A DNA stretch of 64,000 bases from a virus: positions 1-64,000 of the IMG/VR virus record IMGVR_UViG_3300044684_000361; one strand, given 5' to 3'. Below, in pieces: positions 8,868-23,491 of this stretch; the first letter of the stretch is position 1, and every line of letters begins with the position of its first letter. The position numbers and the translations under genes were made by a program. Under the pieces are notes generated by a model. That model had not been told where the DNA came from. It did not search any database and saw nothing but the letters and a program-made list of their open reading frames with translations.

Positions 8868-9036
8868 AACGCTGTCATCGGAGGAGAGCCTCGAAGTGGC
8901 CGACTTGATTGCAAGAATCGATCGCCAACACCCAGACCGGCCGATGGTCGATCTCTATTCGTTGGGCGACGAGATGACTCTGACGATCGAGGAGGCTCGC
9001 GGCCTCCGTGATTGGCTCAACAAGGTGTTGCCATGA
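8860..9036 (+). CDS. Hypothetical protein
   Basis: GTG start overlapping the upstream stop. Confidence 0.5.
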   Translation: MSETLSSEESLEVADLIARIDRQHPDRPMVDLYSLGDEMTLTIEEARGLRDWLNKVLP

Positions 9037-9302
9037 CAGACACTCACCCGACCGAGAATCTGCACCGCTGTCCAGACTGCAAGAATCAGTTTGTCCAGCC
9101 ATTCGTCTGCACCACCTGCGGCGCGCAGAAGCTGTACGACGAGACTGTGAGGCAACAGGCCCTAGAGATCGAACGCCTGCGCAATCACATCTTCAACGGC
9201 CAAGGGCTCATGCAGTACTACCTCGATCACTACGGTTCGACAGACGCGCAGTCGCACGAGGCACGGGTCTGGCTTGCAACCAAGATTGGAGATGCGACGT
9301 GA
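9033..9302 (+). CDS. Zn-ribbon protein
   Basis: CPDC..CTTC; ATGA coupling. Confidence 0.55.
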   Translation: MTDTHPTENLHRCPDCKNQFVQPFVCTTCGAQKLYDETVRQQALEIERLRNHIFNGQGLMQYYLDHYGSTDAQSHEARVWLATKIGDAT

Positions 9303-9793
9303 CCAAGGAAAACCGCCTCACTCTCGACACTGACAGTCGGGTGTTCTTTTACGAGCAAGACCATTACTACCTGTCGAACTTCTCGGCGTTCTGTATCCAT
9401 TGGCGCGGGTACGCGTTTTTTACCTCGGAGCATGCCTATCACTGGGCTCGCTTTGATCTGCCGGAGGGGCGCGGTCTGCTGCTGCAGGATTGCGTGCAGC
9501 GCGCACCCTCCGCTCACGCGGCGTTCCAATTCGCCCAAGCCGAGAAGCATAAGCAGCGTTCCGACTGGGATCTGATCAAGGTCCCGACGATGAAAGAGAT
9601 TCTGCTCGCGAAGGTCGAACAGCACGAGTATGTGAAGCGAAAGCTTCTCCAGTCGGCCGGGCGCGAGTTGGTTGAGAACTCCTGGCGCGACGCCTTCTGG
9701 GGTTGGGGTCCGAATCGGGACGGAAGGAACGAGTTGGGCAAGCTCTGGATGGAGATTCGCACAGAGCTTCTAAACAGGAGCGATGCACAGTGA
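9299..9793 (+). CDS. NADAR (YbiA/DUF1768)-family hydrolase
   Basis: LSNF, SEHAY, RSDWD..K..M, LVENSWRDAFWG and GRNELGKLWM motifs; GTGA overlap start. Confidence 0.9.
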   Translation: MTKENRLTLDTDSRVFFYEQDHYYLSNFSAFCIHWRGYAFFTSEHAYHWARFDLPEGRGLLLQDCVQRAPSAHAAFQFAQAEKHKQRSDWDLIKVPTMKEILLAKVEQHEYVKRKLLQSAGRELVENSWRDAFWGWGPNRDGRNELGKLWMEIRTELLNRSDAQ

Positions 9794-10920
9794 CCTCAAA
9801 CCAGCAGTTATCCGAAAGGCTGAACGCATTCGTTCGCAACATATGGTTCAGCCTCAGCCAATCGGAAAGGGAACTCCTGCAGGAGGCAGTGGCAGCCCTC
9901 AAGCGTTCTAATGGTGAAGCGTGTCCCACGTGCGCAAAGCTACGCGCCGAACTGGCTGATCCTCCTCCCGATGTGCAGGAGTTGGTCTTGCGTAAGCAAG
10001 GACTCTGGCCGCCAGCATCACCTGTCGAGACGAAAACACGTCACCTGCCACAGCACGAACAGTATTCGGTGCCGACAGTCGAGCGCATTCGGGAGGCGCA
10101 CAGTCAGGTCCCCACCGGCTGGTGGCAGTCACCCGGCAAAGTCAGCCCGGGACATCCGGTCTACGCCCAAGGCAACGACCCCTGCTATCTCTGTGTGCTT
10201 CTCGCGGAAATTGATCGGCTGCGTGCTGACTTGGAACGGCTCTCTATCGGTAGTCGTGGCAACGTCTGGGAAGAGGTTCGGGCGCTGCGATCAGCCCTGG
10301 ACCGCATCCGGGGGTTTCGTTGCTCGTCGTTCCGAAGTTACAAGGAGGACTTAGACGATATACGGGCGATCGCCCGAGAAGCGCTGTCAGATGTACGACA
10401 AGGCGAGACGTCCGGCGAGGAAGACGCGACGAAGCTACGTAGGCTCCTGGCCTTCTGCTACAGCAGCCACCGCCTGTATCTCGATGACGGGGAGATGCAG
10501 GACAACAGCGTACAGCCGTTCATTGACTGGAAACGGGACTCCGTGGATGAGATCGTTCGCAAGATTCATGAACGCGGGCTCGCGCAGATCATGCGATCTG
10601 TGGAAACGACTTCGGTTCCTGCCGCGCATCGCGCCGGGACTGAACCGCTGTCACGTTTGGCTGGCGATATCGAGTGGTGCCTTACCAAGATAAATCCCGA
10701 TACAGATGTCTATGCCACGCTACATCGGGTACAGACGGCGTTGAGAGGCGCAGTAGTGGAAACGACTGCGACTGTGGAGGATCGGGTTACCACCGAGGAT
10801 ATCAAAGTGGGCGCAACTGTCTTCAAGGCTGGCTGCCAGGTGCAAACCGTGCTCTCGCGTATCTACAGGGGGCTCAATCCGATGGAGAGAGCCGCTGAGA
10901 AAGCCAGAGGTGACGAATGA
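9790..10920 (+). CDS. Mosaic accessory protein
   Basis: Several short modules joined by VET/GET linkers. Confidence 0.6.
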   Translation: MTSNQQLSERLNAFVRNIWFSLSQSERELLQEAVAALKRSNGEACPTCAKLRAELADPPPDVQELVLRKQGLWPPASPVETKTRHLPQHEQYSVPTVERIREAHSQVPTGWWQSPGKVSPGHPVYAQGNDPCYLCVLLAEIDRLRADLERLSIGSRGNVWEEVRALRSALDRIRGFRCSSFRSYKEDLDDIRAIAREALSDVRQGETSGEEDATKLRRLLAFCYSSHRLYLDDGEMQDNSVQPFIDWKRDSVDEIVRKIHERGLAQIMRSVETTSVPAAHRAGTEPLSRLAGDIEWCLTKINPDTDVYATLHRVQTALRGAVVETTATVEDRVTTEDIKVGATVFKAGCQVQTVLSRIYRGLNPMERAAEKARGDE

Positions 10921-11102
10921 TCCTCGCAAAGCTCGGCGATGTCGTGAAGGTGAACGTCACACAACCGATTCCGCAGACATACGCGCTGACACTCGCTACA
11001 CCCGAGTCCGTCGCCTACGCCAACGAGCTATTGAACGATCCGGACAAAAGTGGCTGGTGGCTCGATAGCGGATCAGAGAACGGGAGAGATGAGCATGGCT
11101 GA
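10917..11102 (+). CDS. Hypothetical protein
   Basis: ATGA-coupled ORF. Confidence 0.5.
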   Translation: MILAKLGDVVKVNVTQPIPQTYALTLATPESVAYANELLNDPDKSGWWLDSGSENGRDEHG

Positions 11103-11328
11103 TTTGCCACTGATCGCAGCCATCAAAGCCGAAGGCATCCGCAAGGAGCTGTTTGACCGTTGTCGTCAGTCTCTCTATGGCGCGCAACGTGCCTCGGAAG
11201 AGGCAGCCAAGGATTCCTTTAAGAAGTTCACCTTGGAGTTGGCGAAGGCGCGGGCATTTCTGGACGAGGCTGACCTGATCCACGCCGAACTGCAGAAATG
11301 CTCATCCGAGAGCGAGTCAGCGCTATGA
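11095..11328 (+). CDS. Hypothetical helical protein
   Basis: Coupled ORF. Confidence 0.5.
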   Translation: MADLPLIAAIKAEGIRKELFDRCRQSLYGAQRASEEAAKDSFKKFTLELAKARAFLDEADLIHAELQKCSSESESAL

Positions 11329-11537
11329 ATTTCAGACTCGTTTGCCAGGCGCGTGAAAACCATCCGCACGGTGTCTACAGCGGCACGGATCGAAAGTACG
11401 TGCTGCAGTGCCGTCAGTCCGATCAAGAGCGCTGGCAGACAGTGCCGATCGCGGACTGGGATGAACTGCCAAGGCAGGAACAAGACGACATAGCGAGTGA
11501 CCTGAGAAGCGCACTGGGCAAGGCAGGTGACGTATGA
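11325..11537 (+). CDS. Hypothetical protein
   Basis: ATGA-coupled ORF. Confidence 0.5.
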   Translation: MNFRLVCQARENHPHGVYSGTDRKYVLQCRQSDQERWQTVPIADWDELPRQEQDDIASDLRSALGKAGDV

Positions 11538-11540
11538 AAC

Positions 11541-11614
11541 GGGCCCGTAGCTCAAAGGCAGAGCAGAGGAACTTCAAGTCCAAAGACGTGGGTTCGAATC
11601 CCACCGGGCTCTCC
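11541..11614 (+). tRNA. tRNA-like gene with an atypical anticodon arm (TCA-centred; possibly degenerate)
   Basis: Acceptor GGGCCCG/CGGGCTC, D arm GCTC-AAAGGCA-GAGC, T arm GTGGG-TTCGAAT-CCCAC; anticodon arm GGA(A)CT-TCA-AGTCC; ends TCCG rather than CCA. Confidence 0.75.
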
Positions 11615-11928
11615 GAATTCGAGGCCGTGGTGGTGCTGCGGGTCCGTCAACTTGGAGCCGATGCGAGCGATGCAGCAAACAGAATAGAGGCAAGCCTCAA
11701 AAGTGCGTTATGTGGAAAGCTTTTATTCCCGTCGAGGGAATCCCGTTCCGGTTTTTGGACCGATGCCTGCGCGACTCGCGTTCAGGCTCAGGGTCATACT
11801 GGCCAGGTGACCACGGTGTTGATGACAAAGGAGATCAGGGAAATGAGGTGAATTCCATGCTAGAGACCCTCCTGACAACCCTGAAGCGGATCGTGTTGTT
11901 TCCTTTCGTTCCTACTCAAGAGGTTGTC

Positions 11929-12363
11929 ATGAACAAATGTCTGTTTTTGAAGGTCAAGTTGAAATCGCTCATGGCCGAGGCGCGGATTATCCGCAAGGAG
12001 GAGCGGAAGCTCCTGCCCCCTCCGTTACCAAGGCCGCCAAAACAGGGATGTCCATCCGAGGAGTTGGTCCAGTATCACCTTGATAAGGCAACGGCCCGGG
12101 CCAGGCGAGCGGCCTGGAAGTACGATCATGAAAAGCGCGAAGCGCTCTACTTCCACCGCATCCGTGATGTCCGGGATGAGGCGCGGGCCACTCTCCTGGC
12201 CTATGGCTTCCTACGAGGACGTAAGTACCGCCAGATGGAAGCGCGCACGCGGGGCTTGGGCGAACCGACCTGGGGCCGGGTGATGAAGATGGTGGAGAAG
12301 TACGGTGGGAAGAGCCCGGAAGAAGCCTTCAAGGCGATCGAGGCCTGGAAGAAGGTCAAGTAA
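11929..12363 (+). CDS. Conserved basic phage protein of unknown function
   Basis: LKVKLKSLMAEARIIRKEE...VRDEARATLLAYGFLRGRKY motif; GAGG RBS. Confidence 0.7.
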   Translation: MNKCLFLKVKLKSLMAEARIIRKEERKLLPPPLPRPPKQGCPSEELVQYHLDKATARARRAAWKYDHEKREALYFHRIRDVRDEARATLLAYGFLRGRKYRQMEARTRGLGEPTWGRVMKMVEKYGGKSPEEAFKAIEAWKKVK

Positions 12364-12371
12364 AGCCGGAG

Positions 12372-12472
12372 ATATCTCACGGCCAGGAAGGCCGTGAGAT
12401 ATGGTGGTTGCGGGGGCACCCCCGCCAGACGGACGGTCCGGGTACTTGTCCGATGTCAGTCTACCGCAGACT
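12372..12472. other. Cluster of four hairpins between convergent genes
   Basis: ATATCTCACGGCC/GGCCGTGAGATAT, GCGGGG/CCCCGC, CGGAC/GTCCG, AGTCT/AGACT. Confidence 0.65.
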
Positions 12473-12742
12473 TTACCCGGCGCAAGAGGGCGCCTTCTCC
12501 TCTTTCTCGGCTCCCACGAGGACCTCCCGTTCGATCTCGGCATCGATCTCGGCCACGAGCTGGCGGATCATCTTTCTGGGCGGGATAGTCCACAGGCCCA
12601 CCACCAGTAGGCTCCTGGCTTTGAACAATAGCTCTCGCTTCTTGTCCTTCGACAGCTCTCCCAGGATCTCTATCTTGCTTTTCACCGGGACTGGGGGTTT
12701 CTCCGTTTCCCCCGCTGCCCGAAAGCGTTTGGGCCGTCCCAA
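12473..12742 (-). CDS. Hypothetical protein
   Basis: ORF downstream of the Cro-like gene. Confidence 0.45.
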   Translation of the reverse strand: MGRPKRFRAAGETEKPPVPVKSKIEILGELSKDKKRELLFKARSLLVVGLWTIPPRKMIRQLVAEIDAEIEREVLVGAEKEEKAPSCAG

Positions 12743-12748
12743 GGCTCG

Positions 12749-12994
12749 CTAATGCTTGCCGTGCCGGATCGCCCGAGCGCGTTCCAGCTGTCGCAGCCGC
12801 TTGCGCTCCTGGCGTTCGTAATGGTCCATGTTCAGCTCCTTGCCGGCCTTCCTCGCGAGGATCAAGGCGGCCCCCAGAGGAACCAGCCTGTCTTCGTCCC
12901 ATTGATAGACTGCCGAGCGATGTCGCGCCCCTTCTAATGCCTTGATGACCCCGGGGCGCCCATTGAAGATCTTCAAGGCTTCTCGCATATACAT
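12749..12994 (-). CDS. Cro-like HTH regulator
   Basis: EALKIFNG...IKAL....SAVYQW....VPLGAALIL resembles P22/N15 Cro; divergent from the early promoter. Confidence 0.7.
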   Translation of the reverse strand: MYMREALKIFNGRPGVIKALEGARHRSAVYQWDEDRLVPLGAALILARKAGKELNMDHYERQERKRLRQLERARAIRHGKH

Positions 12995-13039
12995 ATGGAT
13001 CACCATCTTACCTGATCTAGAAATTTTGCAAACTGACGT

Positions 13040-13068
13040 TTGACATGTTGTCTATGTATCTGTACATT
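13040..13068 (+). promoter_or_regulatory. Sigma-70 promoter overlapped by an operator (13049-13066)
   Basis: TTGACA-17 bp-TACATT; operator TGTCTAT-GTAT-CTGTACA. Confidence 0.85.
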
Positions 13069-13075
13069 CTCACCA

Positions 13076-13280
13076 ACGCGGCTGAGTCGGAAAGGTTCCC
13101 CTTTAGGCCTCATGGCCTACCGGAAACCAACTTCAGTTAGCCCCTGCGAAGCGCTTTCGACCCCAATCCTAGGCACACCGAAGTCGGCTTGGAGTTACGC
13201 TCCAGCCGAACCAGAGGTGAGCTGGCTCTTGTGGGAGGACCAGTAGCAGATGGAGGGACTAGGAGTCCTCCCAGCCGCGT
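13076..13280 (+). ncRNA. Candidate ~205-nt structured RNA / 5' leader
   Basis: Starts at the expected TSS; ends closed by ACGCGGCTG/CAGCCGCGT; at least five internal helices. Confidence 0.65.
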
Positions 13281-13315
13281 CCTTTGAGTGGTCATCATTT
13301 TTTAGGAGGGTCAAG

Positions 13316-13759
13316 ATGTCAACTGAGTCGGCGGCCGTGCAGTTGGTGGATTCCGCCTTCGCCCATGAGCAGGGGCCCGCAAAAGCCTATTCCTGCCTGT
13401 ATGAGTGCGGGGCCTTGGTCGCACAGCCGGGCTATGCCTGCGAGGCCTGCGCTGAAGCTGCGCTGCCCTTTGAGCTGCAAAAGCGCGAAGGGGATCACGT
13501 CTTTCTCAGCCGAGAACGCCTGGTCAAGGCGGGGTCTTATAAGGGGCAAGAACGTCGAATTCTTCTACGGCCCAGGAATCAGGAAGAAAAGAACGATCTC
13601 AAGAAAGCCTCCATCGCGCTCCTGGCGGCAGCCAAACATATCAACGCCAATTTTTCCTTCGCTACCTCCGCCGAGGGTCGGGATTTTTGGGAAGCCATAG
13701 TTCATATGCTCTGGGAGAAGGCTGGCGAGATGGAAGAGGCCCTGAAGAAGAAACCATAG
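13316..13759 (+). CDS. Early protein with N-terminal Cys motif
   Basis: AGGAGG RBS; CLYECG..CEAC. Confidence 0.65.
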   Translation: MSTESAAVQLVDSAFAHEQGPAKAYSCLYECGALVAQPGYACEACAEAALPFELQKREGDHVFLSRERLVKAGSYKGQERRILLRPRNQEEKNDLKKASIALLAAAKHINANFSFATSAEGRDFWEAIVHMLWEKAGEMEEALKKKP

Positions 13760-13761
13760 CC

Positions 13762-14040
13762 ATGCCGCAGCTCTATCCTTGTGTGACCTGCGGTCAGCAG
13801 TTGAACCTCCTTGAGGGACTCAACTGCCAACGTTGTGCCGCCCAAGAAAATACCCAGCAGGCTGCGAATATACCACTGGGGGATGAGTCTTTGGCGGCGC
13901 TCCGGAAGAAGAGGGCCCTGGCTTTGGCAACTGATCTCGCCACGGCGTTTCCTTGGGTCAGTACGAAGCAAGGCACTTACTATTGGGGGGAAGTTTTTTC
14001 CCATTTGATGTCGTTGTCGCAAGGGGAGGGATGGGAATGA
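13762..14040 (+). CDS. Early Zn-finger protein
   Basis: CVTC..CQRC; C-terminus (F-x-(F/W)...(E/Q)G..(F/Y)W) resembles the upstream ORF. Confidence 0.6.
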   Translation: MPQLYPCVTCGQQLNLLEGLNCQRCAAQENTQQAANIPLGDESLAALRKKRALALATDLATAFPWVSTKQGTYYWGEVFSHLMSLSQGEGWE

Positions 14041-14546
14041 CCGCTGCAGAAGAGGCCCTGAGAAAAGGGGTGTTGGACAAACTTGAGATCTTACGTCACG
14101 CCATGGAACGCCAAGGCTATCTGCACCCCATGGCGATCGTAGAGAACTGCGATGGTCAAACAGCTCTAATGGTATTCCCCGATGGGCCACCCCGGACGGA
14201 AGCACTCATTGCCTTGTGCCGGAGCCATCAATGCTCCCGCCTTTATGTGGCCGGAGAGATGTGGAAAGTGCGTCGTGCTGGCCTCAAGGAGGCCCTCAAG
14301 GCGGTTCCCTCCAAGTGCGAGGATCGTGAGGAAATCATCGGCGTACAGGCGATCGATCGACATTCGTCCATTGTGGTATGCGCCTCCTTGACCATTGACC
14401 GCCGTGGAGATGGCTCCCCGTTTTTCCCAAGGGAGCCGGAACTTTTGTTTTCCCCGAAAGGGGCTTTTTTTGGCTCCATGCCAACGCATGAGCAGCTCTG
14501 GGGTGATGAAAAAGTCCATTCAATACCAAAAGCGAGGGTTAATTGA
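14037..14546 (+). CDS. Hypothetical protein
   Basis: ATGA-coupled ORF. Confidence 0.6.
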   Translation: MTAAEEALRKGVLDKLEILRHAMERQGYLHPMAIVENCDGQTALMVFPDGPPRTEALIALCRSHQCSRLYVAGEMWKVRRAGLKEALKAVPSKCEDREEIIGVQAIDRHSSIVVCASLTIDRRGDGSPFFPREPELLFSPKGAFFGSMPTHEQLWGDEKVHSIPKARVN

Positions 14547-14797
14547 TGAGCATAAGCAATTATATCTGCGCAGTGGAGCGCTGTGGCAACAAGCTCTCTG
14601 GTCGCGCTCGAACCAACATCTGCCCGAGGTGCCAGGCCGTGGCCCGCTACTGGCGCAATCCCGAGCGCGGGCTCGATGCCATCCTGACACGCCAGATCAA
14701 GTTGGATCTGTGGCAAGCCCGTATGATTTATCTAGGAGGTGTAGACAAGTCCTATGCAAAAGCCCGAAAAGTCATTAGTGCCTCTCGGTCCGCGTGA
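14546..14797 (+). CDS. Cys-rich small protein
   Basis: CAVERC..CPRC. Confidence 0.55.
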   Translation: MSISNYICAVERCGNKLSGRARTNICPRCQAVARYWRNPERGLDAILTRQIKLDLWQARMIYLGGVDKSYAKARKVISASRSA

Positions 14798-15284
14798 AAA
14801 AGAGATTCTCGCGCATATCAAGGCTGGCAAGAACGTGAAGGAGATCGCCGAGGCCATGGGGATCATGACCAAGAGCGTGCCGGCATATGCTTCCATGCTC
14901 CGCGCAAAGGGATACTTGCCGCCTATTCCGCCGAAGGACGGAAGGCGCAGGCGTACGGAACCTCCGGTGACTCGTGAGGAGGTGGAGAAAGAGAAACTTG
15001 AAAAGGTGCGGGCGAAGGAATCCACGGGGCTTGCGATCCAGCAGGTGGAATCGCGAATGCCCGCTGAGCCGCCTCCGGCCGCTATCGCGGATGTGGAAAC
15101 CCATAATCGCCGCAGGCGGCGTGGCAGTGGCGACGGCGACTATCGCTCGTCGAAGGTATCCATCACGACGCGTGTATTGGCAGAAGAATTGGATAAGTCA
15201 ATCCAACAGTACATTGCTGAAGGGGGGCGCCTGGAAAAGTGGCACCGCTGGGCGATCGTGCTGTGCGGATCGATCCTTGAGTGA
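14754..15284 (+). CDS. LuxR-type HTH DNA-binding protein
   Basis: LGPREKEILAHIKAGKNVKEIAEAMGIMTKSV. Confidence 0.7.
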   Translation: MQKPEKSLVPLGPREKEILAHIKAGKNVKEIAEAMGIMTKSVPAYASMLRAKGYLPPIPPKDGRRRRTEPPVTREEVEKEKLEKVRAKESTGLAIQQVESRMPAEPPPAAIADVETHNRRRRRGSGDGDYRSSKVSITTRVLAEELDKSIQQYIAEGGRLEKWHRWAIVLCGSILE

Positions 15285-15290
15285 AAGCAG

Positions 15291-15320
15291 TTGAACTTAT
15301 TGTACAGCCCGCTGTACTCT
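15291..15320 (+). promoter_or_regulatory. Promoter with operator TGTACAG-CCCG-CTGTACT (15301-15318)
   Basis: TTGAAC-18 bp-TACTCT; intergenic, before a strong RBS. Confidence 0.7.
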
Positions 15321-15342
15321 AACATTGTAGGAAGGAGGAGAT

Positions 15343-15588
15343 ATGGCTCTCACACGAGCCCAGATCGATGTATTACGGTATGCCCTGGCTGACTCAGTCT
15401 ACGAAGCCGATGGCATCACCTTACATGCCTGGATGCCTTTCAAGGGCGCGCCGGGCCGTGCTGTTATCAAGGCGCTGAAACGAAAGGGATTCCTGGGGGA
15501 GAATGGTCGCGCCACTGAGGCCGGGCGGGGGGCGCTGCTTACCTCTCCCGAGGCCTCCTCAGAGAGGAGGTCCGATGATGCGCTTTGA
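15343..15588 (+). CDS. Small winged-helix-like protein
   Basis: AGGAGG RBS; LTRAQ..L...KALKRKGFL....ATEAGRGAL. Confidence 0.55.
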   Translation: MALTRAQIDVLRYALADSVYEADGITLHAWMPFKGAPGRAVIKALKRKGFLGENGRATEAGRGALLTSPEASSERRSDDAL

Positions 15589-16399
15589 GGTGCAAAAGGT
15601 TACTCCTGAGCAGGCTGAGAAGTGGCTGACCCGCAATGAGGGTAATCGAAAGCTACGCGAGGCGCGAGCCGCTGGGCTATCCAGAGCGATCCTGGCCGGC
15701 AAATGGAGTCTGACCCATCAGGCTATTGCCTTTTCCAAACGGGGCCGGCTTCTGGATGGGCAGCATCGCCTGCGTGCCATCGTGCTCGCCAGACAGCCCG
15801 TTGAGGTGGTGGTGGCCTATGACGTGCCTGATGAGGCCTTCGCCTATATGGATGCGGGTCTCCCCCGGCAAATGTATGAGCGTTTGCGCAAAGACAAACG
15901 GCATACCGCCATCTGCTCCACGGTCTTTCGCCTCCTACAGAGCAACCGCGTACCCCAGGAGCACGAAGCGGAGCTGCTCATGGAAACCTTTGGCCCCGCG
16001 ATGCTGAAGATGGACCAGATCACGCGTCCCACGACGGCTCGCAATGTGATCAAGGCGGCCCCCTATGAAGGGGCGATCATGCTGCGGATCAAGGAAGCGA
16101 TGATGGACAGCGATGAGGACCGGGTCCAGAAAATCAACTTCCACATGGAAAAGCTGCGCAAGGGAGAGATTTCGCTCCTGCCGCCGATCCTACAATCCTT
16201 TTACCGCCAGACCGCTGAAGGGGTGAAGAATCCTGAGATCGGCGTCTCACCCGTGACAGACAAATTTGTGCGTACATGGATCGCTTTTGATCCAGCCAAG
16301 GAGGATACTTCGCGCCTTCAGGTGAGCGACCATCGTACCGCCACACTGGAAGCGCAGGCCGTATTTCACGAAGCCACCCAGGGGATCTTTGATGACTGA
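15575..16399 (+). CDS. ParB/Srx-like (DGQHR) domain protein
   Basis: VTPEQAEKWL..N..NR and GRLLDGQHRLRAIV motifs. Confidence 0.75.
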   Translation: MMRFEVQKVTPEQAEKWLTRNEGNRKLREARAAGLSRAILAGKWSLTHQAIAFSKRGRLLDGQHRLRAIVLARQPVEVVVAYDVPDEAFAYMDAGLPRQMYERLRKDKRHTAICSTVFRLLQSNRVPQEHEAELLMETFGPAMLKMDQITRPTTARNVIKAAPYEGAIMLRIKEAMMDSDEDRVQKINFHMEKLRKGEISLLPPILQSFYRQTAEGVKNPEIGVSPVTDKFVRTWIAFDPAKEDTSRLQVSDHRTATLEAQAVFHEATQGIFDD

Positions 16400-16850
16400 T
16401 TACGAAGGTATCTTCATGAAGGCAGCCGAGCAGGCCCGTGAGGGACTGGGGAAGGTGGAGCTGTTGATCCCTTTTCTCGCGATGTCGATGCTGCAGGCGG
16501 TAGCTCACTTCCAGAAAACCGGTGATCCGGTGGGGGAGCAGTTGTTAGGTGGGCTCTACCATATCCTCCAAAAGGAAGTTATACAGCCTGGGAGCCTATG
16601 CTTGGAATGTACCACTCGACGGATGAAGGGGAGGCAGAGCGCTGCGTTCGAGATCACGGTCACAGCGATCGCGATCGCGATCGGTAACTACTTCGGTCAT
16701 TCTGGCGACTGTCAGAAAGCCTTCCGGCAAATGCAGGATCGGATGGATCGAGAGGCGGTAGATCCAGCAAAAACGCGCGATGCGGCACAGCGCTTTGGAC
16801 AACAGCTGTGCGCGCTCATGAGTAGTAAGTTCGGCATGCAGCAGGGTTGA
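16392..16850 (+). CDS. Hypothetical protein
   Basis: Overlapping ORF within the operon. Confidence 0.55.
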   Translation: MTDYEGIFMKAAEQAREGLGKVELLIPFLAMSMLQAVAHFQKTGDPVGEQLLGGLYHILQKEVIQPGSLCLECTTRRMKGRQSAAFEITVTAIAIAIGNYFGHSGDCQKAFRQMQDRMDREAVDPAKTRDAAQRFGQQLCALMSSKFGMQQG

Positions 16851-16857
16851 AAAAACA

Positions 16858-17412
16858 ATGGCGGATGTAACCGTTTCAGAAGGCGTAGTGGAAGAATTCG
16901 GCGAGTCGCAAAAGAGGAAGCCGAAAGTCAAGATCGGGGGGCAGTGGTATTTCCTGGGAAACACCCGCCTGGACGGGGTGGCGACCGGCGATAAGCTTTC
17001 GTTCGAATGGTCCACCTTCAAGACCGACGATATGCGCTATCCCATCAAGGTGCTGGAGGGGTGGGGGTTTGTCGCCAAGCAGGAAGCCAGATCCGCGCCG
17101 CCGCCCCCTCCTCCCAGTTATCCCCCACAGCAGGGAGGAGGGGGAAATTGGCAAGCGGGCTACCCGCAGGCGCCCCCACCACCGGGCTATCCACAGCAGC
17201 AGCCAGCATACGTCCCGGCATCCCCACCAGCGCAGCCACCCCCGACTCCTGCGTATGACAGTGATCAGCTGCGGCTGATCAGTAACTTCATGGCGGCGGT
17301 CGCGCCCAAGCTCGATAGGCCCGCCCAGGTCGGGGAGTGGTTCCGCGCCATCTCCTGCGCGGTGCGTGGACAGGAATATTTTGAGGAAAGGGTGCCTTAC
17401 TCATCACGATGA
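16858..17412 (+). CDS. Possible ssDNA-binding protein (OB-like N-terminus, P/Q-rich linker)
   Basis: Beta-rich aromatic N-terminal ~75 aa followed by a Pro/Gln low-complexity stretch. Confidence 0.4.
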   Translation: MADVTVSEGVVEEFGESQKRKPKVKIGGQWYFLGNTRLDGVATGDKLSFEWSTFKTDDMRYPIKVLEGWGFVAKQEARSAPPPPPPSYPPQQGGGGNWQAGYPQAPPPPGYPQQQPAYVPASPPAQPPPTPAYDSDQLRLISNFMAAVAPKLDRPAQVGEWFRAISCAVRGQEYFEERVPYSSR

Positions 17413-17756
17413 TCGTCCTTCCGGGGGAGCAAGGGGTGATCGATTTTCTCTTTGTGTGTAGCCAGAACTACCAGCGTAGCCCCACGGCCGAGCACGTGGC
17501 GCGTGCGCTTGGCTACCTGGCGGATAGCGCAGGCTCGGATCGCCCCTGTGCAGGGCGGCCACTGACGCCAGCGGCAATAGCGCGAGCCGATCGGATTGTA
17601 TGCATGGAGGAATGCCATGCGCAGGCTGTCGCAAGAATGGTTCCTGCCCGCGCTCAGGATATCGAGGTGTGGCACATCTCAGATGAGTACGAATACTGCG
17701 CGCCGGAACTGATCCGGCTCATCCAAGAGCGTCTAGGAGCAAAAGATGTGGGTTGA
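17409..17756 (+). CDS. Low-molecular-weight protein tyrosine phosphatase family protein
   Basis: FLFVCSQNYQRS P-loop (CX5RS), SAG, ADRIVCME, ISDEY. Confidence 0.85.
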   Translation: MIVLPGEQGVIDFLFVCSQNYQRSPTAEHVARALGYLADSAGSDRPCAGRPLTPAAIARADRIVCMEECHAQAVARMVPARAQDIEVWHISDEYEYCAPELIRLIQERLGAKDVG

Positions 17757-18339
17757 AAGAAGTCCGCGCCGGTTTGATTTCTGTGGCTGCCCTCCGTGTG
17801 GCCTGTGCTATGTCTGGGTGGATGAGGCCCCGCCTGATGCCGTGACCACGAAAAAACCGACCTTCGAGGAGCAGATGATCGCGCTCTATGGCGCGGACAA
17901 GCCCCGCCCTGCCACTCCCGAGGAGTATGAATTGGCTCATGCGTATCGAGCCAAGGCGCGCAAGGAGTTCGATGACAAGATCGATGCCATGATGCGCAAG
18001 CAGGATGAGGAACAAGGGTGGCAACGCTTCCTCGCCCAGAAGCCAAGGAAGGTTACGGTGTACAAACCTCTGAATGCGGTCACGTTGGATTCCATCGGAG
18101 GCGAGGAGTTGGAGCGACGGATCGCAGCCGAGCAGGGAAAGAAGCAAGAACAGAAAGTTGAGCAGCAGCAAGCATCCAGGCCTTTTCCTGCCCAGCAGAC
18201 TATGCAGAGACAAATGCAGAGCGTCGCGATCGGAGTCTTGGGTGGCGGGGCTTCCCCTGCCTGTGGAACGACGCGCTATGACTATCAGAGCGACAGGATG
18301 CAGGTGTGGGATGGATACCGGTGGGTCCCGCAGTACTGA
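17746..18339 (+). CDS. Hypothetical protein
   Basis: ORF in the operon. Confidence 0.55.
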   Translation: MWVERSPRRFDFCGCPPCGLCYVWVDEAPPDAVTTKKPTFEEQMIALYGADKPRPATPEEYELAHAYRAKARKEFDDKIDAMMRKQDEEQGWQRFLAQKPRKVTVYKPLNAVTLDSIGGEELERRIAAEQGKKQEQKVEQQQASRPFPAQQTMQRQMQSVAIGVLGGGASPACGTTRYDYQSDRMQVWDGYRWVPQY

Positions 18340-18345
18340 AATAAG

Positions 18346-18373
18346 TTGATTCGTGTACAGATACCTGTACACT
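18346..18373 (+). promoter_or_regulatory. Promoter with perfect operator GTGTACAG-ATAC-CTGTACAC (18353-18372)
   Basis: TTGATT-16 bp-TACACT; palindrome in the intergenic gap. Confidence 0.75.
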
Positions 18374-18409
18374 TTGCGCGCGCGGATTGTTATTTCTTTA
18401 TAGGAGGAA

Positions 18410-19876
18410 ATGCACTTGTCAGAAACACTACAGAACGTCGGCCGCAAGCTGGTGGCGGACGTGGAGCGTACTGGCGATAAGATCATCATCCCAAGCGGGG
18501 TGACAATCGATCAGGTCATCGACCTGCTCAATCGCCGCAAGAAGTTCGAGGAAGAAGAGACCGTCATCCGCCGCACTTTTCCGGTGTTCCCGCTGGATGG
18601 TGCCGTGGCGCTCGATCGCGCGCTGAACTCTCTTTACGGCTGGGCCCCGGCGATCGCAACGCCCGGCTTCTTCACCAGTAACCCACCGCAGCTCATTCAG
18701 GTGAACGTGGGTCCCAATGAGGTGAAGTCTGTCCCCTGGGGACGCTTCAAGCTGCCCAATGTCGAGGGCCACGTGGATACCTCGATCGATCGCGGCGACA
18801 GCGGCTGCCTCGTATTTCAGGTCGTGGCGACCGTGAAGCGCAAGAATGAGCCCGAGATCAACAAGCTCTTCGAGGTGATCGGCCAGGAGATCAAGGCGCA
18901 CAGCATCTACCGGGGGAAGGCGATCAAGATCCGCTTCCGCGACGATGAGGGTGAGCCGCTGCCCATGCCGAAGCCTGTCTTCTTGGATACTTCGTACATC
19001 AGAGAGGACCAGCTGGTGTATTCCCGCCATGTGATGGATGCGGTGAACACCAATCTCTTTACGCCGATCCGGCGTGCCGCCGACTGCATCCGCAATAAGA
19101 TCCAGTTGAAACGCGGTGTGATCCTGGGTGGTGTGTATGGCACCGGCAAGACCCTCGCGGCAGCAGTCGCGAGTAAGATCGCGGTCGAGACCGGCATCAC
19201 GTACGTCTATGCGGAACGCGCCGATGAACTCAAGGACGCCTTGGAATTTGCCAAACAGTATCAGTCGCCGGCTTCCGTGGTGTTCGTTGAGGATATCGAC
19301 CGGGACATCACTGGCGAGCGCACCCATGAGATGGATGCCGTCCTCAATACCATCGATGGGGTGGACGGCAAGCACCATAACATCATCGTGGTGCTCACCA
19401 CGAACGCCCTGGATAAGGTCCACAAGGCCATGCTTCGCCCTGGGCGCTTGGATGCGGTGATCAATATCACTCCTCCGGATGCAGAGGCCGTTGCTCGCCT
19501 CATCGTCAATTACGGTGGTGGCTTGATCCGCAAGGATGCCAACCTGACTGAGGTGGGTAAGGTTCTGGATGGCCAGATCCCTGCCGTGATCGCGGAAGTG
19601 GTGAAACGAGCCAAGCTCTCGCAGTTGGCGATCCAGCCAGAGGGCACCGAACTGAACGAGATTACCCCAACGGCCCTTCTGGAGGCGGCGCACACCATGG
19701 CGATGCAGATCGATCTGCTGCGCGGTGAGCAGCCTCGCAAGGATCACTCCTCGCTGGAGGAACGCATCATCAAGGTCATTCAGGATGGGCTGTCGGAGAC
19801 GGGCACGGTCACCGAGGAGACCCAGGGTCGTTTGCGCAAGCTCGACAAGGACATTCGCCAACGGCTGGAGATGTAA
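18410..19876 (+). CDS. Classic-clade AAA ATPase
   Basis: RGVILGGVYGTGKT, VFVEDID, LTTN, second region of homology MLRPGRLD. Confidence 0.9.
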   Translation: MHLSETLQNVGRKLVADVERTGDKIIIPSGVTIDQVIDLLNRRKKFEEEETVIRRTFPVFPLDGAVALDRALNSLYGWAPAIATPGFFTSNPPQLIQVNVGPNEVKSVPWGRFKLPNVEGHVDTSIDRGDSGCLVFQVVATVKRKNEPEINKLFEVIGQEIKAHSIYRGKAIKIRFRDDEGEPLPMPKPVFLDTSYIREDQLVYSRHVMDAVNTNLFTPIRRAADCIRNKIQLKRGVILGGVYGTGKTLAAAVASKIAVETGITYVYAERADELKDALEFAKQYQSPASVVFVEDIDRDITGERTHEMDAVLNTIDGVDGKHHNIIVVLTTNALDKVHKAMLRPGRLDAVINITPPDAEAVARLIVNYGGGLIRKDANLTEVGKVLDGQIPAVIAEVVKRAKLSQLAIQPEGTELNEITPTALLEAAHTMAMQIDLLRGEQPRKDHSSLEERIIKVIQDGLSETGTVTEETQGRLRKLDKDIRQRLEM

Positions 19877-19971
19877 AGACACTCCTGGGGATTAGCTTTA
19901 TTCGAGTGTCGCACTGGACCGCCCGGAGGAGGCCCCAGCTCCGGGCCGTTCCAAGAGAGAGGACAACAACC

Positions 19972-20151
19972 TTGTCATTGTCTGAGGAACTGGTTCATTT
20001 TCGATATCCACTCCCTGTCTGGGCAGCCATGCGGGATCGGGAGATGACTGCCGCCTTGATCAAGGCCGAAGAAGAACATCTGGCCTATCGGCGATTTCGT
20101 ATCGGATTGGCTCATATCTTCGCGATGCCTCAAAGATTGGAGAAACGCTGA
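19972..20151 (+). CDS. Hypothetical protein
   Basis: TTG start after GAGAGGA. Confidence 0.35.
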   Translation: MSLSEELVHFRYPLPVWAAMRDREMTAALIKAEEEHLAYRRFRIGLAHIFAMPQRLEKR

Positions 20152-20484
20152 ATGCCTGCTTACCTTGTCACGAATCGTGAAACCGGCTCCCGCGATCTGG
20201 TGGTGGCTGATACGCCCGCACAGGCTCTTCGTTTTATCTCGGAACGGGTGTTGACCGTGTCTACCCTGAAGGGTGAGGACGTGGCTATCCTTGTTGCGGA
20301 GGGGCTTGCTCCTCAGAACGCCAGGAAGGCACAAAAGGAGATGGACTTGACGCCGCCTCCTGCTGGGCCCACGACGTACCTGCCGATGTACACGCATAAG
20401 ACGGGCTGCGCGGCCGATCCCTGGACCCCGATAGGCCAGAAAGATTGCCGCTGTATGAAGCTCGATATCCCTACGGTGATGTAA
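20152..20484 (+). CDS. Hypothetical protein
   Basis: YLV...LVVADTPAQALR pattern. Confidence 0.55.
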   Translation: MPAYLVTNRETGSRDLVVADTPAQALRFISERVLTVSTLKGEDVAILVAEGLAPQNARKAQKEMDLTPPPAGPTTYLPMYTHKTGCAADPWTPIGQKDCRCMKLDIPTVM

Positions 20485-20567
20485 GCCCCGTCAGGGGCGC
20501 AAGAAGAATTTCTTTATAGGAGGACGCAACCGATGAAGTATGACCTGCACACAAGGGGCGGGAAGCC

Positions 20568-20765
20568 ATGGGCGAAAGTTCTCCAGAGACCGAGGCCATT
20601 CAACACGGGATACGCAGCACGTATGTCAATCTGAAGTGTCGCTGCGCGACCTGTAAGAAGGCCAATTGTGACTACATGCGCCCCTACATGAACGAGTGGA
20701 AGCACAAGCGTTCACCACGGGGGTATCCACAGAAACGTAACCGCAAGGGGAATAATGATGGATGA
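20568..20765 (+). CDS. Small Cys/His-rich protein
   Basis: HG..STY...KCRC..C motif. Confidence 0.5.
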   Translation: MGESSPETEAIQHGIRSTYVNLKCRCATCKKANCDYMRPYMNEWKHKRSPRGYPQKRNRKGNNDG

Positions 20766-20786
20766 ACTTCAACTTCTGCAGACCGC

Positions 20787-21098
20787 ATGATTCGGGAGAC
20801 GTTGATGGCTGACGACAAGAATCTCCGGCCTCTCTATTCGCATCTGTACTTCGTGCAAAATGAGACCGATAGTCGAATGGAGATGCGGATCATGATCCCG
20901 GAGGTCTTCGGCAAGGATGCCGAAGATTATCGCGTGATGTGTTCCATTCCCATCTCTCTCTATGAGATCCCTGGCGTTCCGCAGCTCTTTGCCGAGGCCG
21001 GCGCCAAGATCGCCCAACAGTATTTGGCGGTGGCCTGCAATATTCAGTTCGAGGGCGGGCTACAGACCGTTGTTGTAGACAAAAATCCCTCCAACTGA
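20787..21098 (+). CDS. Hypothetical protein
   Basis: ORF. Confidence 0.55.
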   Translation: MIRETLMADDKNLRPLYSHLYFVQNETDSRMEMRIMIPEVFGKDAEDYRVMCSIPISLYEIPGVPQLFAEAGAKIAQQYLAVACNIQFEGGLQTVVVDKNPSN

Positions 21099-21113
21099 CG
21101 AGGAGACAGTCCA

Positions 21114-21503
21114 TTGTATTTTGCATTGGGTGTGTTGAGTTTTGTAGTGGCGTTTCTCTTCGGGGTGGCGCTGGGGCAGGGGATGCATCGCAAGGAGGTG
21201 ATGGATCTGAAGCTGGAGATAAGCCGTCTTGAAAAGTACCGAGGGGCCTGGATTGATCAGGCCATGAAGTACCGCCTGGAGTTGCGTAAACTTCAGGTGG
21301 CTCTGGAACGGCGACAGAGAAAGATTGAGCGGTTGAAGGTCAGGATCGGGCAGACGGTGACGGACTTGTCCTGGCTGAATCGAAAGATTCAGGAAGATCT
21401 AGCCCCAACTCTACCGCCTCCTCCTGAGACAGCCTCGACCGCAAGCGGTCAATTGCCCCTTGAGCAATCCGCCGATGCAGCTCACAGCAGGGGCATTGGG
21501 TAG
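21114..21503 (+). CDS. Membrane-anchored coiled-coil protein
   Basis: N-terminal TM helix plus heptad repeats; AGGAG RBS. Confidence 0.6.
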   Translation: MYFALGVLSFVVAFLFGVALGQGMHRKEVMDLKLEISRLEKYRGAWIDQAMKYRLELRKLQVALERRQRKIERLKVRIGQTVTDLSWLNRKIQEDLAPTLPPPPETASTASGQLPLEQSADAAHSRGIG

Positions 21504-21542
21504 CGCAGGAGGCGATCCCGCGCAGCGCGAGGAATAGCTCCC

Positions 21543-21674
21543 TCACACCTTGGGCATCACCTTCTGGATCTCTTCTTTGAGGCTCCTTTCGATGTCGGCC
21601 AATTTGCCGGCCAGCTTCTGATCCGCAAGCCACCCGGCCGCGAAGCCGATCACGAAGATGATCACTGATGTCAT
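21543..21674 (-). CDS. Small membrane protein (43 aa)
   Basis: MTSVIIFVIGFAAGW; ATGA overlap with Rz. Confidence 0.5.
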   Translation of the reverse strand: MTSVIIFVIGFAAGWLADQKLAGKLADIERSLKEEIQKVMPKV

Positions 21675-22180
21675 GGGTAATGCCTCTGATATTCGCGAAG
21701 TTGGCTGCTTACTTGGTCGGCGCTCGCTCCAAGAGCTTGGAGCATTGCGAGTCGATCGAGGGAGACTGTAGGATCTCCCGCAGGCACTGACTGAAGAGGT
21801 TGGGCGGGGGTGCCGGGAGGCGCATCTCCGGGCTGGGCGGGGTGGGCCTCGGGCAGATCGGCGCTCCCACCGTGTGTATCGTGGCACAGCTCGCGAGCAG
21901 TGGTAATAGGATGCTGGCCTTGATAAGCGATGCTGTCTGCACGTTCTTTCGCATAAGCCGCTTCCGCTGCCTCCGCCCGCTGCTTCAATTGCTCGGTCAC
22001 CTGCGTGGCCGCGTCCTTCAGCTGCTGGAGGGCCTGATCATCGCGATGCTGCTGCTCGCTGACTCCTTCATCGATCAGGTGATGCTCCCACAGATGTACC
22101 GCAAGGGCCACCAAACCGATCATGATCACCTCCAAGATCCACCCCGGGATGCCGGTCTTCCCGATAAGCCATGCGATCAT
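21671..22180 (-). CDS. Rz: Inner-membrane spanin (Rz-like)
   Basis: N-terminal TM helix, periplasmic coiled coil, downstream of the endolysin. Confidence 0.75.
   Translation of the reverse strand: MIAWLIGKTGIPGWILEVIMIGLVALAVHLWEHHLIDEGVSEQQHRDDQALQQLKDAATQVTEQLKQRAEAAEAAYAKERADSIAYQGQHPITTARELCHDTHGGSADLPEAHPAQPGDAPPGTPAQPLQSVPAGDPTVSLDRLAMLQALGASADQVSSQLREYQRHYP
21709..21954 (-). CDS. Rz1: Outer-membrane lipoprotein spanin embedded in Rz
   Basis: Lipobox LLAS-C, Pro-rich mature part, fully embedded in another frame of Rz. Confidence 0.75.
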   Translation of the reverse strand: MRKNVQTASLIKASILLPLLASCATIHTVGAPICPRPTPPSPEMRLPAPPPNLFSQCLREILQSPSIDSQCSKLLERAPTK

Positions 22181-22190
22181 ACTCTATCCC

Positions 22191-22385
22191 TCACTTCTGG
22201 GTGGCACGCCAAAAGATCGCTGCCGCCCCGACGAGGCGCAGGACCGCATGCCAGTGTGGCCAAGGCAGGAGATCCTTGAAATCCTGTTCATAAGGGGTGA
22301 GATCCACGACCGCGAGCGCCCCCAGGATGGTGGCGACAGTTTTCTGTCCGTGAGCGGCCCAGTAAGCCTTGATCGTCTCGATCAT
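22191..22385 (-). CDS. Holin-like membrane protein
   Basis: Two hydrophobic segments, between endolysin and spanins. Confidence 0.5.
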   Translation of the reverse strand: MIETIKAYWAAHGQKTVATILGALAVVDLTPYEQDFKDLLPWPHWHAVLRLVGAAAIFWRATQK

Positions 22386-22810
22386 GAGGGTGCCTTCAAG
22401 GAGAGGTTAAAGATCTTCAGGAGCCGCCTGGACCAGCCTCTGGCATTGTGGGCCCAGTTCGGAAGGCTGGCCAGATATTGGATATGCTCGGCCTGGAAGC
22501 CGACTGCGAACTCCAGCGCAGGCAGGCCCGAATACATCTGAAGCCATCGCTGGGGATTGCCTCCATTGATGGCGCTGTCAAACACGAGGAGCGCCTCTGT
22601 CCAGGGAAGCTTCTCACAGCCATGGGTAGCCCAGTAGTCCCGCTGGTAGAGAAACTTCGCGCGCTCCAAGGTGAGATTCGCGATGTCCTCATTCGGGTAG
22701 CGTCGCTTGGATATCCCGTACTTGGTCTCGCCTCCGGGGTCTTGTGGATCGTTGACATAGCCGCCCTCGATCCCCACGACCATGGCGAAGGCGGCATCAA
22801 AGTAACTCAT
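22382..22810 (-). CDS. GH108 endolysin (N-acetylmuramidase)
   Basis: EGGYVNDPQDPGGETKYGI; GWSRR. Confidence 0.9.
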   Translation of the reverse strand: MSYFDAAFAMVVGIEGGYVNDPQDPGGETKYGISKRRYPNEDIANLTLERAKFLYQRDYWATHGCEKLPWTEALLVFDSAINGGNPQRWLQMYSGLPALEFAVGFQAEHIQYLASLPNWAHNARGWSRRLLKIFNLSLKAPS

Positions 22811-22980
22811 GGCCTTTGCCTTTGTAGGTTATTTCGTTCCAGCGTTTTCCTTCGACTAGCCACTCCTGCCTGATGATGACATTTCATGCAAACGTGGCTT
22901 ACTTTGTTCTCTTCCGGTTTGAACCGGAAAAAAGCCGCTATATCTTTCTCTTTCCAACATTTGCGACAGATCAGCCTCAT
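22807..22980 (-). CDS. 57-aa double-CxxC protein (MRLICRKC...CMKC)
   Basis: Translated by hand; ATGA overlaps on both sides. Confidence 0.55.
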   Translation of the reverse strand: MRLICRKCWKEKDIAAFFRFKPEENKVSHVCMKCHHQAGVASRRKTLERNNLQRQRP

Positions 22981-23153
22981 TTCTTGGTGTTACTCGTGTA
23001 ATAGCGATAACTCGCCCGAGCCACAATCAGACCCGCCACGGACAGCGCAATCCGCAGGATCATGTCAACCGCAGGTAACCAACTCACAATCGCTGCTGCC
23101 CCCGTGAATGTCAATCCAATTGCTGCGAGCCAGTGGCGGATGTGGTCCATCAT
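22977..23153 (-). CDS. Holin-like two-TM protein (58 aa)
   Basis: Two hydrophobic helices, basic C-terminus. Confidence 0.55.
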   Translation of the reverse strand: MMDHIRHWLAAIGLTFTGAAAIVSWLPAVDMILRIALSVAGLIVARASYRYYTSNTKK

Positions 23154-23491
23154 CGCAGCCCTCCGGTCATGGGCTGCTGTTGGCTCACTGGACTCCCTTG
23201 GGGCTTCGCTTGGGGCCCCAATGCCGAGATCTCCTTCTGGAGCCTCATCCACCATGAGCTGGCTGGTCCCCCAGATGCGTATTTCCCAGCGAGCTGTCGC
23301 CGTTTCTCGGACAAGGCGATGGCGATTGCCTGCTTGCGATCCTTGACGATCGGGCCCTTCTTTGACCCGCTGTGCAGTTCGCCATGTTTGTACTCGTGCA
23401 TCACCTTCTGCACCTTGCCCCCCACTGCATACTTCCTCTTCAGTCGAGTCAGTTGAGGACTCACCAGCGGACCCAGATTCGTGCTGTTCAC
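23150..23491 (-). CDS. DUF6496-domain protein
   Basis: KVQKVMHEYKHGELHSG....VKDRKQAIAIALSE. Confidence 0.75.
   Translation of the reverse strand: MNSTNLGPLVSPQLTRLKRKYAVGGKVQKVMHEYKHGELHSGSKKGPIVKDRKQAIAIALSEKRRQLAGKYASGGPASSWWMRLQKEISALGPQAKPQGSPVSQQQPMTGGLR

Follow-up and report, generated by a model that had tools for sequence, protein, structure and literature searches.

Introduction

It is in their early operons that phages settle between growth and dormancy and make their opening moves against host defences; the RNA elements nut, put and c4/CI, found in such operons, each revealed a new regulatory principle. In the P1/P7 c4, P4 CI and N15-type immunity systems, a small RNA is produced by cleavage of the leader of an immunity-region operon. 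The gene 32 leader of T4 carries a pseudoknot, a folded 5' element that is followed by an unstructured A/U-rich stretch and then by the ribosome-binding site. Here we describe a structured RNA domain of 205 nucleotides (nt) at 13076-13280, + strand, in the first 64,000 bases (the window) of the 81,418-base IMG/VR virus record IMGVR_UViG_3300044684_000361, which CheckV estimates to be complete. A first-pass annotation of the window had singled out this stretch as an unrecognised, discrete-looking structured domain beginning at a predicted transcription start, a description that holds and to which covariation between relatives can now be added. The comparison reported below establishes the element together with its strand, core helices, position, copy number and gene linkage. 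We read it, with a probability of about one half, as a cis-acting folded 5' leader domain of the mRNA of a rightward operon, controlling the stability and/or translation of the first gene or genes.

Two of the closest described systems have a large or folded RNA near the start of an operon. The put RNAs of phage HK022, about 70 nt long with two stem-loops, are encoded just after PL (putL) and about 270 nt after PR (putR); they bind the zinc-binding domain of the RNA polymerase beta-prime subunit and suppress downstream terminators (PMC9378689). In the conAn system of pLS20-type plasmids, a large RNA and a processivity protein are encoded near the start of the conjugation operon, and the 20-bp inverted repeats that flank the RNA are dispensable (PMC8191782). 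A screen of IMG/VR 3.0 for structured RNAs (PMC10690425), which also covers leaders linked to gp32, listed 8,495 candidates of 29-151 nt, each required to occur in at least three unique regions, and part of the present element may be among them.

An RNA domain conserved in three phage lineages

The element lies in the 309-nt intergenic gap 13007-13315, between a divergent Cro-like gene on the left and a gene for a protein of 147 amino acids (aa) on the right. Four sequences from three independent lineages were compared. The window shares its lineage with L002 (= L009, L010), a single IMG/VR contig that is 97.6% identical to it over 2,923 aligned columns; the second lineage is L004 (= L011, L012, L013, L016), one phage present in three records, with 68% identity in the Cro-like protein and 47% in the 147-aa protein; the third is L014, a rhizosphere contig with 66% (tblastn) and 51% identity in the same two proteins. 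All share the gene order second leftward gene, Cro-like gene, gap, 147-aa gene, Cys-rich gene, which L014 continues to a gene for a LuxR-type protein, and the RNA precedes the 147-aa gene in all three lineages. The only more distant Cro-relative locus that could be read, L015 (Cro relative 43% identical), has the promoter and a short leader, without the RNA and without the 147-aa gene. Trained on the window and L002 alone, a covariance model recovered both L014 (19.8 bits, E 5e-4) and L004 (14.4 bits, E 0.015) at full length. A model of all four sequences, R2, gives the window 200.3, L002 195.2, L014 158.1 and L004 120.6 bits, scores that are high by construction for its own members, and finds the element once per record in three phage records, of which two are estimated to be complete.

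The core fold of this RNA family is well supported by the pattern of sequence change. It was counted in a model-fitted alignment, A12, for a structure made up of the closing stem P1, the outer and inner parts of P3, hairpin P5 and a candidate pseudoknot. In that alignment 95.9% of 123 cells are paired and both sides have changed in 15 of 31 pairs, which is covariation among homologues across the three lineages. None of 500 column shuffles reached any of five measures. Related sequences can beat shuffles without sharing a structure, and the slid controls, with the 3' partners shifted by 1-3 columns, speak against that here: they gave 26-46% paired cells and 0-3 pairs with both sides changed. 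By helix, both-sided changes occur in six of nine pairs of P1 (97.1% of cells paired), five of six of inner P3 (95.8%), three of six of outer P3 (87.5%) and one of five of P5 (100%). The candidate pseudoknot is paired in 100% of cells, with both sides changed in 0/5 pairs and one U-G to C-G change. An earlier alignment, A8, agrees (98.9% of 93 cells paired, both sides changed in 11/25 pairs), and RNAalifold, unaided, predicts P1, inner P3 and P5. Because shape has been kept while sequence changed, the element very likely does something.

The family also appears to be uncatalogued. A search of the whole 64-kb window against Rfam 15 at gathering scores yielded a tRNA at 11541-11612 alone, and relaxing the threshold to E <= 10 in 12900-13450 gave no match on either strand, with riboswitches, ribozymes, C4, phage pRNA and 6S included in the search; the first-pass annotator had likewise recognised no known RNA family. 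As far as checked, in Rfam 15 and by a literature search, the RNA family is real and uncatalogued, new in its architecture and known in its kind, that of a structured phage operon leader.

Strand of the functional RNA

On the + strand the 205 nt fold to -85.1 kcal/mol, compared with -72.2 +/- 4.6 kcal/mol for shuffled sequences (z -2.81), and 2 of 200 shuffles fold as well. The folding is better than that of shuffles, which the first-pass annotation required of its reading, by a modest amount, and this single-sequence score is suggestive and would not be decisive alone. In each of the three lineages the sense strand folds better than its shuffles, with z-scores of -2.81 (window), -2.19 and -1.94. 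A second line of evidence comes from the nine G-U pairs in the listed helices, all of which would be A-C mismatches on the opposite strand. Eight belong to the core helices or the candidate pseudoknot: L004 has two in P1 (one G-U, one U-G) and one in outer P3, L014 has one in outer and one in inner P3, and the window, L002 and L004 each have one in the candidate pseudoknot. The remaining pair, G19-T79, belongs to an extension of helix P2 in L002. Taken together, the G-U pairs and the fold z-scores favour a functional RNA on the + strand.

A different explanation would be a functional minus-strand RNA, a long antisense leader for the Cro-like gene read from a promoter near 13322-13294, or conservation at the level of DNA, in operators. 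The window's minus strand does fold better than its plus strand (z -4.42, 0/200 shuffles as good), the site at 13322-13294 has 10/12 promoter consensus matches, and no convincing leftward promoter was placed in 13007-13040. The best leftward candidate by eye, around a TTGCAA palindrome at 13026-13031, would give an almost leaderless mRNA starting near the MYM of the Cro-like protein (12994). However, the antisense strand beats shuffles in one lineage of three (z +0.67 in L004 and -1.04 in L014), the site at 13322-13294, which overlaps the 147-aa gene's ATG, is lacking in L004 and L014, the G-U pairs speak for the other strand, and compensating changes in helices 187 nt apart are unlike protein-binding sites in DNA. 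We regard a minus-strand or DNA-level explanation as extremely unlikely.

Architecture of the domain

Positions in the RNA are numbered so that position p corresponds to window position 13075 + p. The ends of the element, 13076-13084 and 13272-13280, pair perfectly over 9 bp, as the first-pass annotation had noted, and this stem, P1, is kept in the three lineages with compensating changes. Inside it, P2 pairs 13086-13089 and 13091-13093, with G13090 bulged, to 13155-13161 (the GTCGGAAAG/CTTTCGAC pairing of the earlier description); the adjoining C13154 is a T in L002, where it would form the G-U pair with G13094 counted above. P2 is present in the window, and analogues occur at the same 5' place in L014 (GUGAGA/UCUCAC) and in L004 (GACG/CGUC, or GAGA/UCUC further away), with 3' partners at non-equivalent distances; the support for P2 as a conserved helix is moderate. 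P3 (13094-13128) consists of an outer helix, 13094-13099 with 13122-13123 and 13125-13128, and an inner hairpin, 13104-13109 with 13114-13119, whose loop (13110-13113) reads NCAU and is closed by a C-G pair in all lineages. The inner hairpin is the TAGGCC/GGCCTA helix described earlier, which is kept and gains an outer extension. The other internal helix described with it, TCGGCTTGGAG/CTCCAGCCGA, is equally present in the window, and proved to be lineage-specific: it forms the apex hairpin (13184-13209; RNA positions 109-114 with 129-134 and 116-119 with 125-128) of a variable middle domain, 13162-13251, of which AGGACCAGUAG (13236-13246) is shared only with L004.

On the 3' side, P5 (13252-13271) pairs 13252-13256 with 13267-13271 around a 10-nt loop that ends in GGAGU (13262-13266). 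In L014 the loop has 11 nt and the pairs run from G174-C194 to G178-C190; at the second position of the helix, the G-C of the window and L002 corresponds to C-G in L004 and L014. The first-pass annotation had treated this hairpin as a local alternative with a switching role, which is not supported, since P5 is a conserved helix of the fold. In its place that annotation had the last 22 nt pair continuously with three partners, two of them crossing as a pseudoknot. Each of these pairings can be found in the window; the proposed pseudoknot is not supported, as its two crossing helices are not kept in all lineages. TCCTAG, the partner of CTAGGA, is TCCCAG, uncompensated, already in the 97.6%-identical L002, and has no equivalent in L014. 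GGAGGAC/GTCCTCC reaches 9 bp in the window, as TGGGAGGAC/GTCCTCCCA, keeps 7 of 8 pairs in L004 and is absent from L014; its sole varying position carries a change that is compensated in P5 and not in GGAGGAC/GTCCTCC, and it may represent an alternative fold limited to a lineage.

Blocks of conserved sequence recur at matching places: GCUG-(G)AG after P1, GARWGG, the NCAU loop, CCRACUYC and GCGRAGYG, with a 13-nt block, GGAGUCCUSCCAG, near the 3' end. CCRACUYC, an unpaired block at 13127-13134, lies 52-55 nt from the 5' end in 4/4 sequences, and GCGRAGYG is found at 13146-13153.

A pseudoknot of another kind than the one first proposed is possible in all lineages. The ACUYC of 13130-13134 can pair with the GGAGU of the P5 loop over 5 bp in each of them, extendable to 8 bp in the window, 9 bp in L004 and 6 bp in L014. 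The same block has a second possible partner nearby, CUYC (13131-13134) with GRAG (13148-13151), in which a U-A pair of the window, L002 and L004 is C-G in L014, one compensating event. The two pairings are mutually exclusive, and each is possible in all lineages. The longer ACUYC/GGAGU helix, using nearly the whole P5 loop, could not, as judged from helix geometry, coexist with P5.

A conserved block with two mutually exclusive partners would fit a riboswitch-like sensor, in which the junction and pseudoknot would be the binding site of an ion or small molecule and the switch would lie in the choice between the two ACUYC partners. A P1-closed domain with conserved unpaired nucleotides and a variable peripheral arm fits such a sensor as well. 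Against it, no conserved expression platform was found, neither a terminator (in 12500-13900) nor a shared way of hiding the ribosome-binding site, the downstream genes are not of metabolism or transport, and no Rfam riboswitch matched. A riboswitch is in our view very improbable.

The middle arm stands apart in its rate of change. The 8 substitutions and 3 indels that separate the window from L002 inside the RNA all fall in 13154-13248, with no difference in the 78 nt before or the 32 nt after this interval, and the 444-nt first gene has one change between the same two phages. No compensating pattern was found among the window/L002 changes in the arm, which is either unconstrained or fast-changing for a reason. 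Most of the differences between the window and L002 sit in a patch at 12549-12640 in the second leftward gene (12473-12742, - strand); this patch and the middle arm are two hypervariable spots that may reflect a recombination mosaic.

The domain is not coding. No peptide is common to the lineages, whose overlapping frames differ, and the indels of L002 shift every frame, in keeping with the earlier description of the element as non-coding. An N-terminal extension of the 147-aa gene from an ATG at 13250 is broken in L002 by a lost base at 13281 and stopped in L004, and was rejected. So was a coding leader from the conserved ATG in the P3 loop: it has no shared ribosome-binding site, and its peptides share only what the conserved CCRACUYC block encodes.

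Promoter, operon and copy number

A sigma-70-type promoter, TTGACA-17-TACATT, lies at 13040-13068 on the + strand, as first annotated. It has 10/12 consensus matches, and is the sole + strand site with that number in 9000-28000; in 12500-13900, 3 promoter-like sites were found compared with 0.3 +/- 0.5 expected. Position 13076 is the 8th base after it. The same TTGACA and TACAnT boxes, with a spacer of 16-17, recur in all three lineages and are followed by exactly 7 nt before the first base of P1; because of this constant distance, the 5' end of the RNA is predicted to lie inside P1. Downstream of the domain, the lineages share an A/U-rich linker of 23 nt (13281-13303, single-stranded, in the window), 15 nt (L004) or 12 nt (L014), and then AGGAGG, which in the window stands at 13304-13309, 6 nt before the ATG of the 147-aa gene (13316-13318). 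That gene (13316-13759, + strand) heads a run of open reading frames on the same strand, an operon of about 10 kb. The terms "early operon" and "made first in infection", used in the first-pass annotation, follow from the Cro-like neighbour and the consensus-like promoter and from nothing else.

In every lineage a palindrome, TGTACA, overlaps the promoter or lies next to it (window 13061-13066, L004 3795, L014 2439, and L015 1805 and 1857), and the Cro-like protein could use it as an operator. Enrichment of the word was rejected: its 14 copies in 64 kb are about chance by reckoning. Two repeats that involve the same region were also set aside as probably due to chance, both being absent from L004 and L014 by reading: an exact 9-nt direct repeat, CTGAGTCGG, at 13082-13090 and 13323-13331, which matches the 5' part of the RNA to codons 3-5 of the first gene, and an 11-nt inverted repeat, 13040-13050 with 13312-13322, between the -35 box and the region of the start codon. 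A 16-nt resemblance of P5 to the true ribosome-binding site is peculiar to the window by reading of L004 and L014, and is treated as chance.

The position of the element, directly after a promoter and at the head of a long one-directional gene array, recalls putL (PMC9378689), and the first-pass annotation had offered a put-like antiterminator as one of its readings. Under this hypothesis a nascent RNA resembling put or conAn2 would attach to RNA polymerase, perhaps helped by the first gene's product, and take it past terminators of the operon of about 10 kb. As in put, which is early and cis-acting, a folded RNA stands at the start of a phage operon, cis action being a conditional assignment here (PMC9378689); as in conAn2, a large RNA bracketed by inverted repeats lies near the start of a long operon and is paired with a small co-encoded protein (PMC8191782), and the strict linkage of the RNA to an orphan first gene (3/3 lineages) fits that pairing. 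However, where put has about 70 nt and two stem-loops (PMC9378689), the present RNA has 205 nt and a multi-helix junction, with P1 closing at least four helices, and it occurs once in each of three phage records, in contrast to the putL and putR of HK022. Put gave no sequence or model match here, and is itself possibly outside Rfam. The differences from conAn are of three kinds: the protein gene comes first there and the RNA first here (3/3 lineages); the conAn2 inverted repeats can be mutated without loss of function, whereas the closing stem of this element covaries; and the conAn operon contains terminators (PMC8191782), which are not clearly present downstream of this RNA. Terminator-like sites in 9000-28000 number 20 compared with 13.3 +/- 3.7 expected, no clear enrichment, and those on the + strand are weak. 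P1, moreover, cannot form before about 200 nt have been made. We consider antitermination distinctly improbable.

The paired ends bear on another reading, a separate stable noncoding RNA of about 205 nt that would be cut from the mRNA in the A/U-rich linker and have a role in trans, such as decoying a host factor or a defence protein. P1 begins at the predicted first base in 3/3 lineages, the single-stranded A/U-rich stretch right after the domain could be the cutting site, and the unpaired blocks are conserved within an element whose middle arm changes much faster than its surroundings. Nothing visible would end such an RNA, because 12500-13900 holds no terminator-like site. In a search for exact Watson-Crick complementarity within the 64-kb window, the longest stretch was 14 nt, opposite a minus-strand gene, a length reached or exceeded in 7/200 shuffles, and the conserved blocks have no further copy in the window. 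The C4 RNAs (RF01695) are known small RNAs cut from such a leader, but no match to them appeared at E <= 10, target sites in the window do not exceed chance, and the present element is about three times longer. We hold the idea of a separate trans-acting RNA to be rather doubtful.

A proposed cis-acting leader domain

The reading we prefer, at about even odds, is that the domain stays attached to its mRNA and works there. Transcription from the consensus-like promoter, which is probably controlled by the divergent Cro-like protein, would begin at about 13075-13076. The first 8-9 bases would then pair some 195 nt downstream to form P1, closing a multi-helix domain with P2, P3 and its NCAU loop, the fast-evolving middle arm, and P5 stacked beside P1. 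A paired 5' end protects bacterial mRNAs from 5'-end-dependent decay. P1 would bury the 5' end in this way, leaving the A/U-rich linker and the strong AGGAGG site open for the first gene, and the closed domain would keep a 200-nt leader from interfering with that open A/U-rich landing zone. So placed, the leader would set the stability and/or the translation of the mRNA in cis. The layout resembles that of the autoregulatory operator of T4 gene 32, though the present element is much larger and of different architecture, and self-regulation by the downstream protein, which has no detectable family, is only a guess by analogy.

The unpaired blocks GAG, GARWGG, NCAU, CCRACUYC, GCGRAGYG and GGAGUCCUSC would, on this reading, form a tertiary core or a factor-binding site, and the likeliest moving part, should the element switch, is the toggling of ACUYC between GRAG and the GGAGU of the P5 loop. 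With the two partners open to ACUYC, these blocks suggest modulation of the leader by a factor or ligand. One candidate is the 147-aa product, because the RNA is strictly linked with the orphan 147-aa gene.

Several observations weigh against a cis-acting leader or limit how far the model behind it can be pressed. The start and end of the transcript, and transcription itself, are predicted from the DNA. The lineages number three, the counted alignments were fitted to the model and so lean towards its structure, and the single-sequence z-scores are modest, at -1.9 to -2.8. Both-sided changes are missing from the candidate pseudoknot. P2, besides its non-equivalent distances, crosses the local CUYC/GRAG pairing in L014 and L004, which implies that part of the model must be wrong or alternative. 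No conserved pairing hides the ribosome-binding site: in folds of the leader with the gene start, the site pairs with partners that are non-homologous from one lineage to the next. A plain stabilising 5' stem, finally, would not seem to need 200 nt with conserved unpaired blocks.

A more novel outcome would be a new class of phage regulatory RNA with a tertiary fold of its own, either a small-molecule or protein sensor that toggles ACUYC or a released trans-acting RNA of about 205 nt. We think this unlikely. If the RNA did act in trans, the middle arm would carry its specificity, which would explain why phages that are 97.6% identical differ almost only there within the RNA.

Whichever mechanism applies, the locus provides a well-supported new RNA family from uncultured soil phages. 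The element has a defined start and a closed junction, carries a candidate pseudoknot and a hypervariable arm, and is linked to a gene family without an assigned function. Its promoter is near the sigma-70 consensus, and a laboratory host may for that reason suffice to test it. So far its reach, three lineages, is small, and structured phage leaders are not new as a kind.

Distribution of the RNA and of its neighbouring gene

Searches beyond the three lineages returned few candidates. A blastn search of 50,697 phage records gave no match; IMG/VR scans for close relatives with the two flanking proteins returned the 97.6% relative only, and alignment-based scans of the same database returned that relative and L004 only. 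Patterns gave a similar result: a stem-loop pattern hit 5 stretches in IMG/VR, 4 of them unrelated, and a two-block motif pattern hit 2, both already recovered. Applied to one genome per GTDB species, the two-block pattern found 119 stretches, none with a closing stem of 8 of 8 pairs, and the best score of model R2 on GTDB stretches was 14.2 bits, compared with 120.6-200.3 bits for true members. A Cro-like profile matched 93 stretches in GTDB genomes, none of which was confirmed. The nine sequencing entries listed include no RNA run, and four DNA runs show the window type and the L002 type only.

The 147-aa protein, which has four conserved Cys, is rare as well. It matches itself only among 308 candidates drawn from a set of 5.8 billion proteins, and a search of 1.84 billion representatives gave only 3 clusters at E <= 1e-30. 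The protein has a fourth lineage (P0028), for which no DNA locus was found in IMG/VR. The protein belongs to no Pfam or PHROG family, has no match among PDB sequences (best E-value 0.61), and gave nothing usable in the ESM Atlas, where the best feature score was 0.84 and the structure TM-scores by query were all <0.5. Its C-terminal module, around SAEG..FW..I..ML, is found 2-4 times within other proteins (P0029-P0035), and by eye the C-terminus of the next gene (13687-14040) is similar to it as well; the module looks like a small repeated phage domain.

Neighbouring genes and minor features

To the left of the gap, the Cro-like gene (12749-13006, - strand) encodes an 85-aa helix-turn-helix protein that matches phrog_409 (transcription regulators) with E 2.6e-5 and whose conserved part begins at MYM, 12994; PF14549 (P22 Cro family) is found in 9 of 25 database relatives of this protein. 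To the right, the run of open reading frames continues with genes that encode, among others, a further small Cys-rich protein and, at 14754-15284, a helix-turn-helix protein of the LuxR type (GerE, E 4.4e-8).

Further upstream, a tRNA-like gene at 11541-11614 scores 48 bits against the Rfam tRNA model and is reported by ARAGORN as "tRNA-???", with a two-letter anticodon read-out. Model R2 has a weak match across the same place, at 11539-11647 (12.1 bits, E 0.04), which is probably due to chance. Between the convergent genes that end at 12363 (+ strand) and 12473 (- strand) lies a long hairpin, 12370-12402, which is likely a two-way terminator; in L002 it carries two changes at facing positions, 12377 T>C and 12397 A>G, which compensate each other by turning a T-A pair into C-G.

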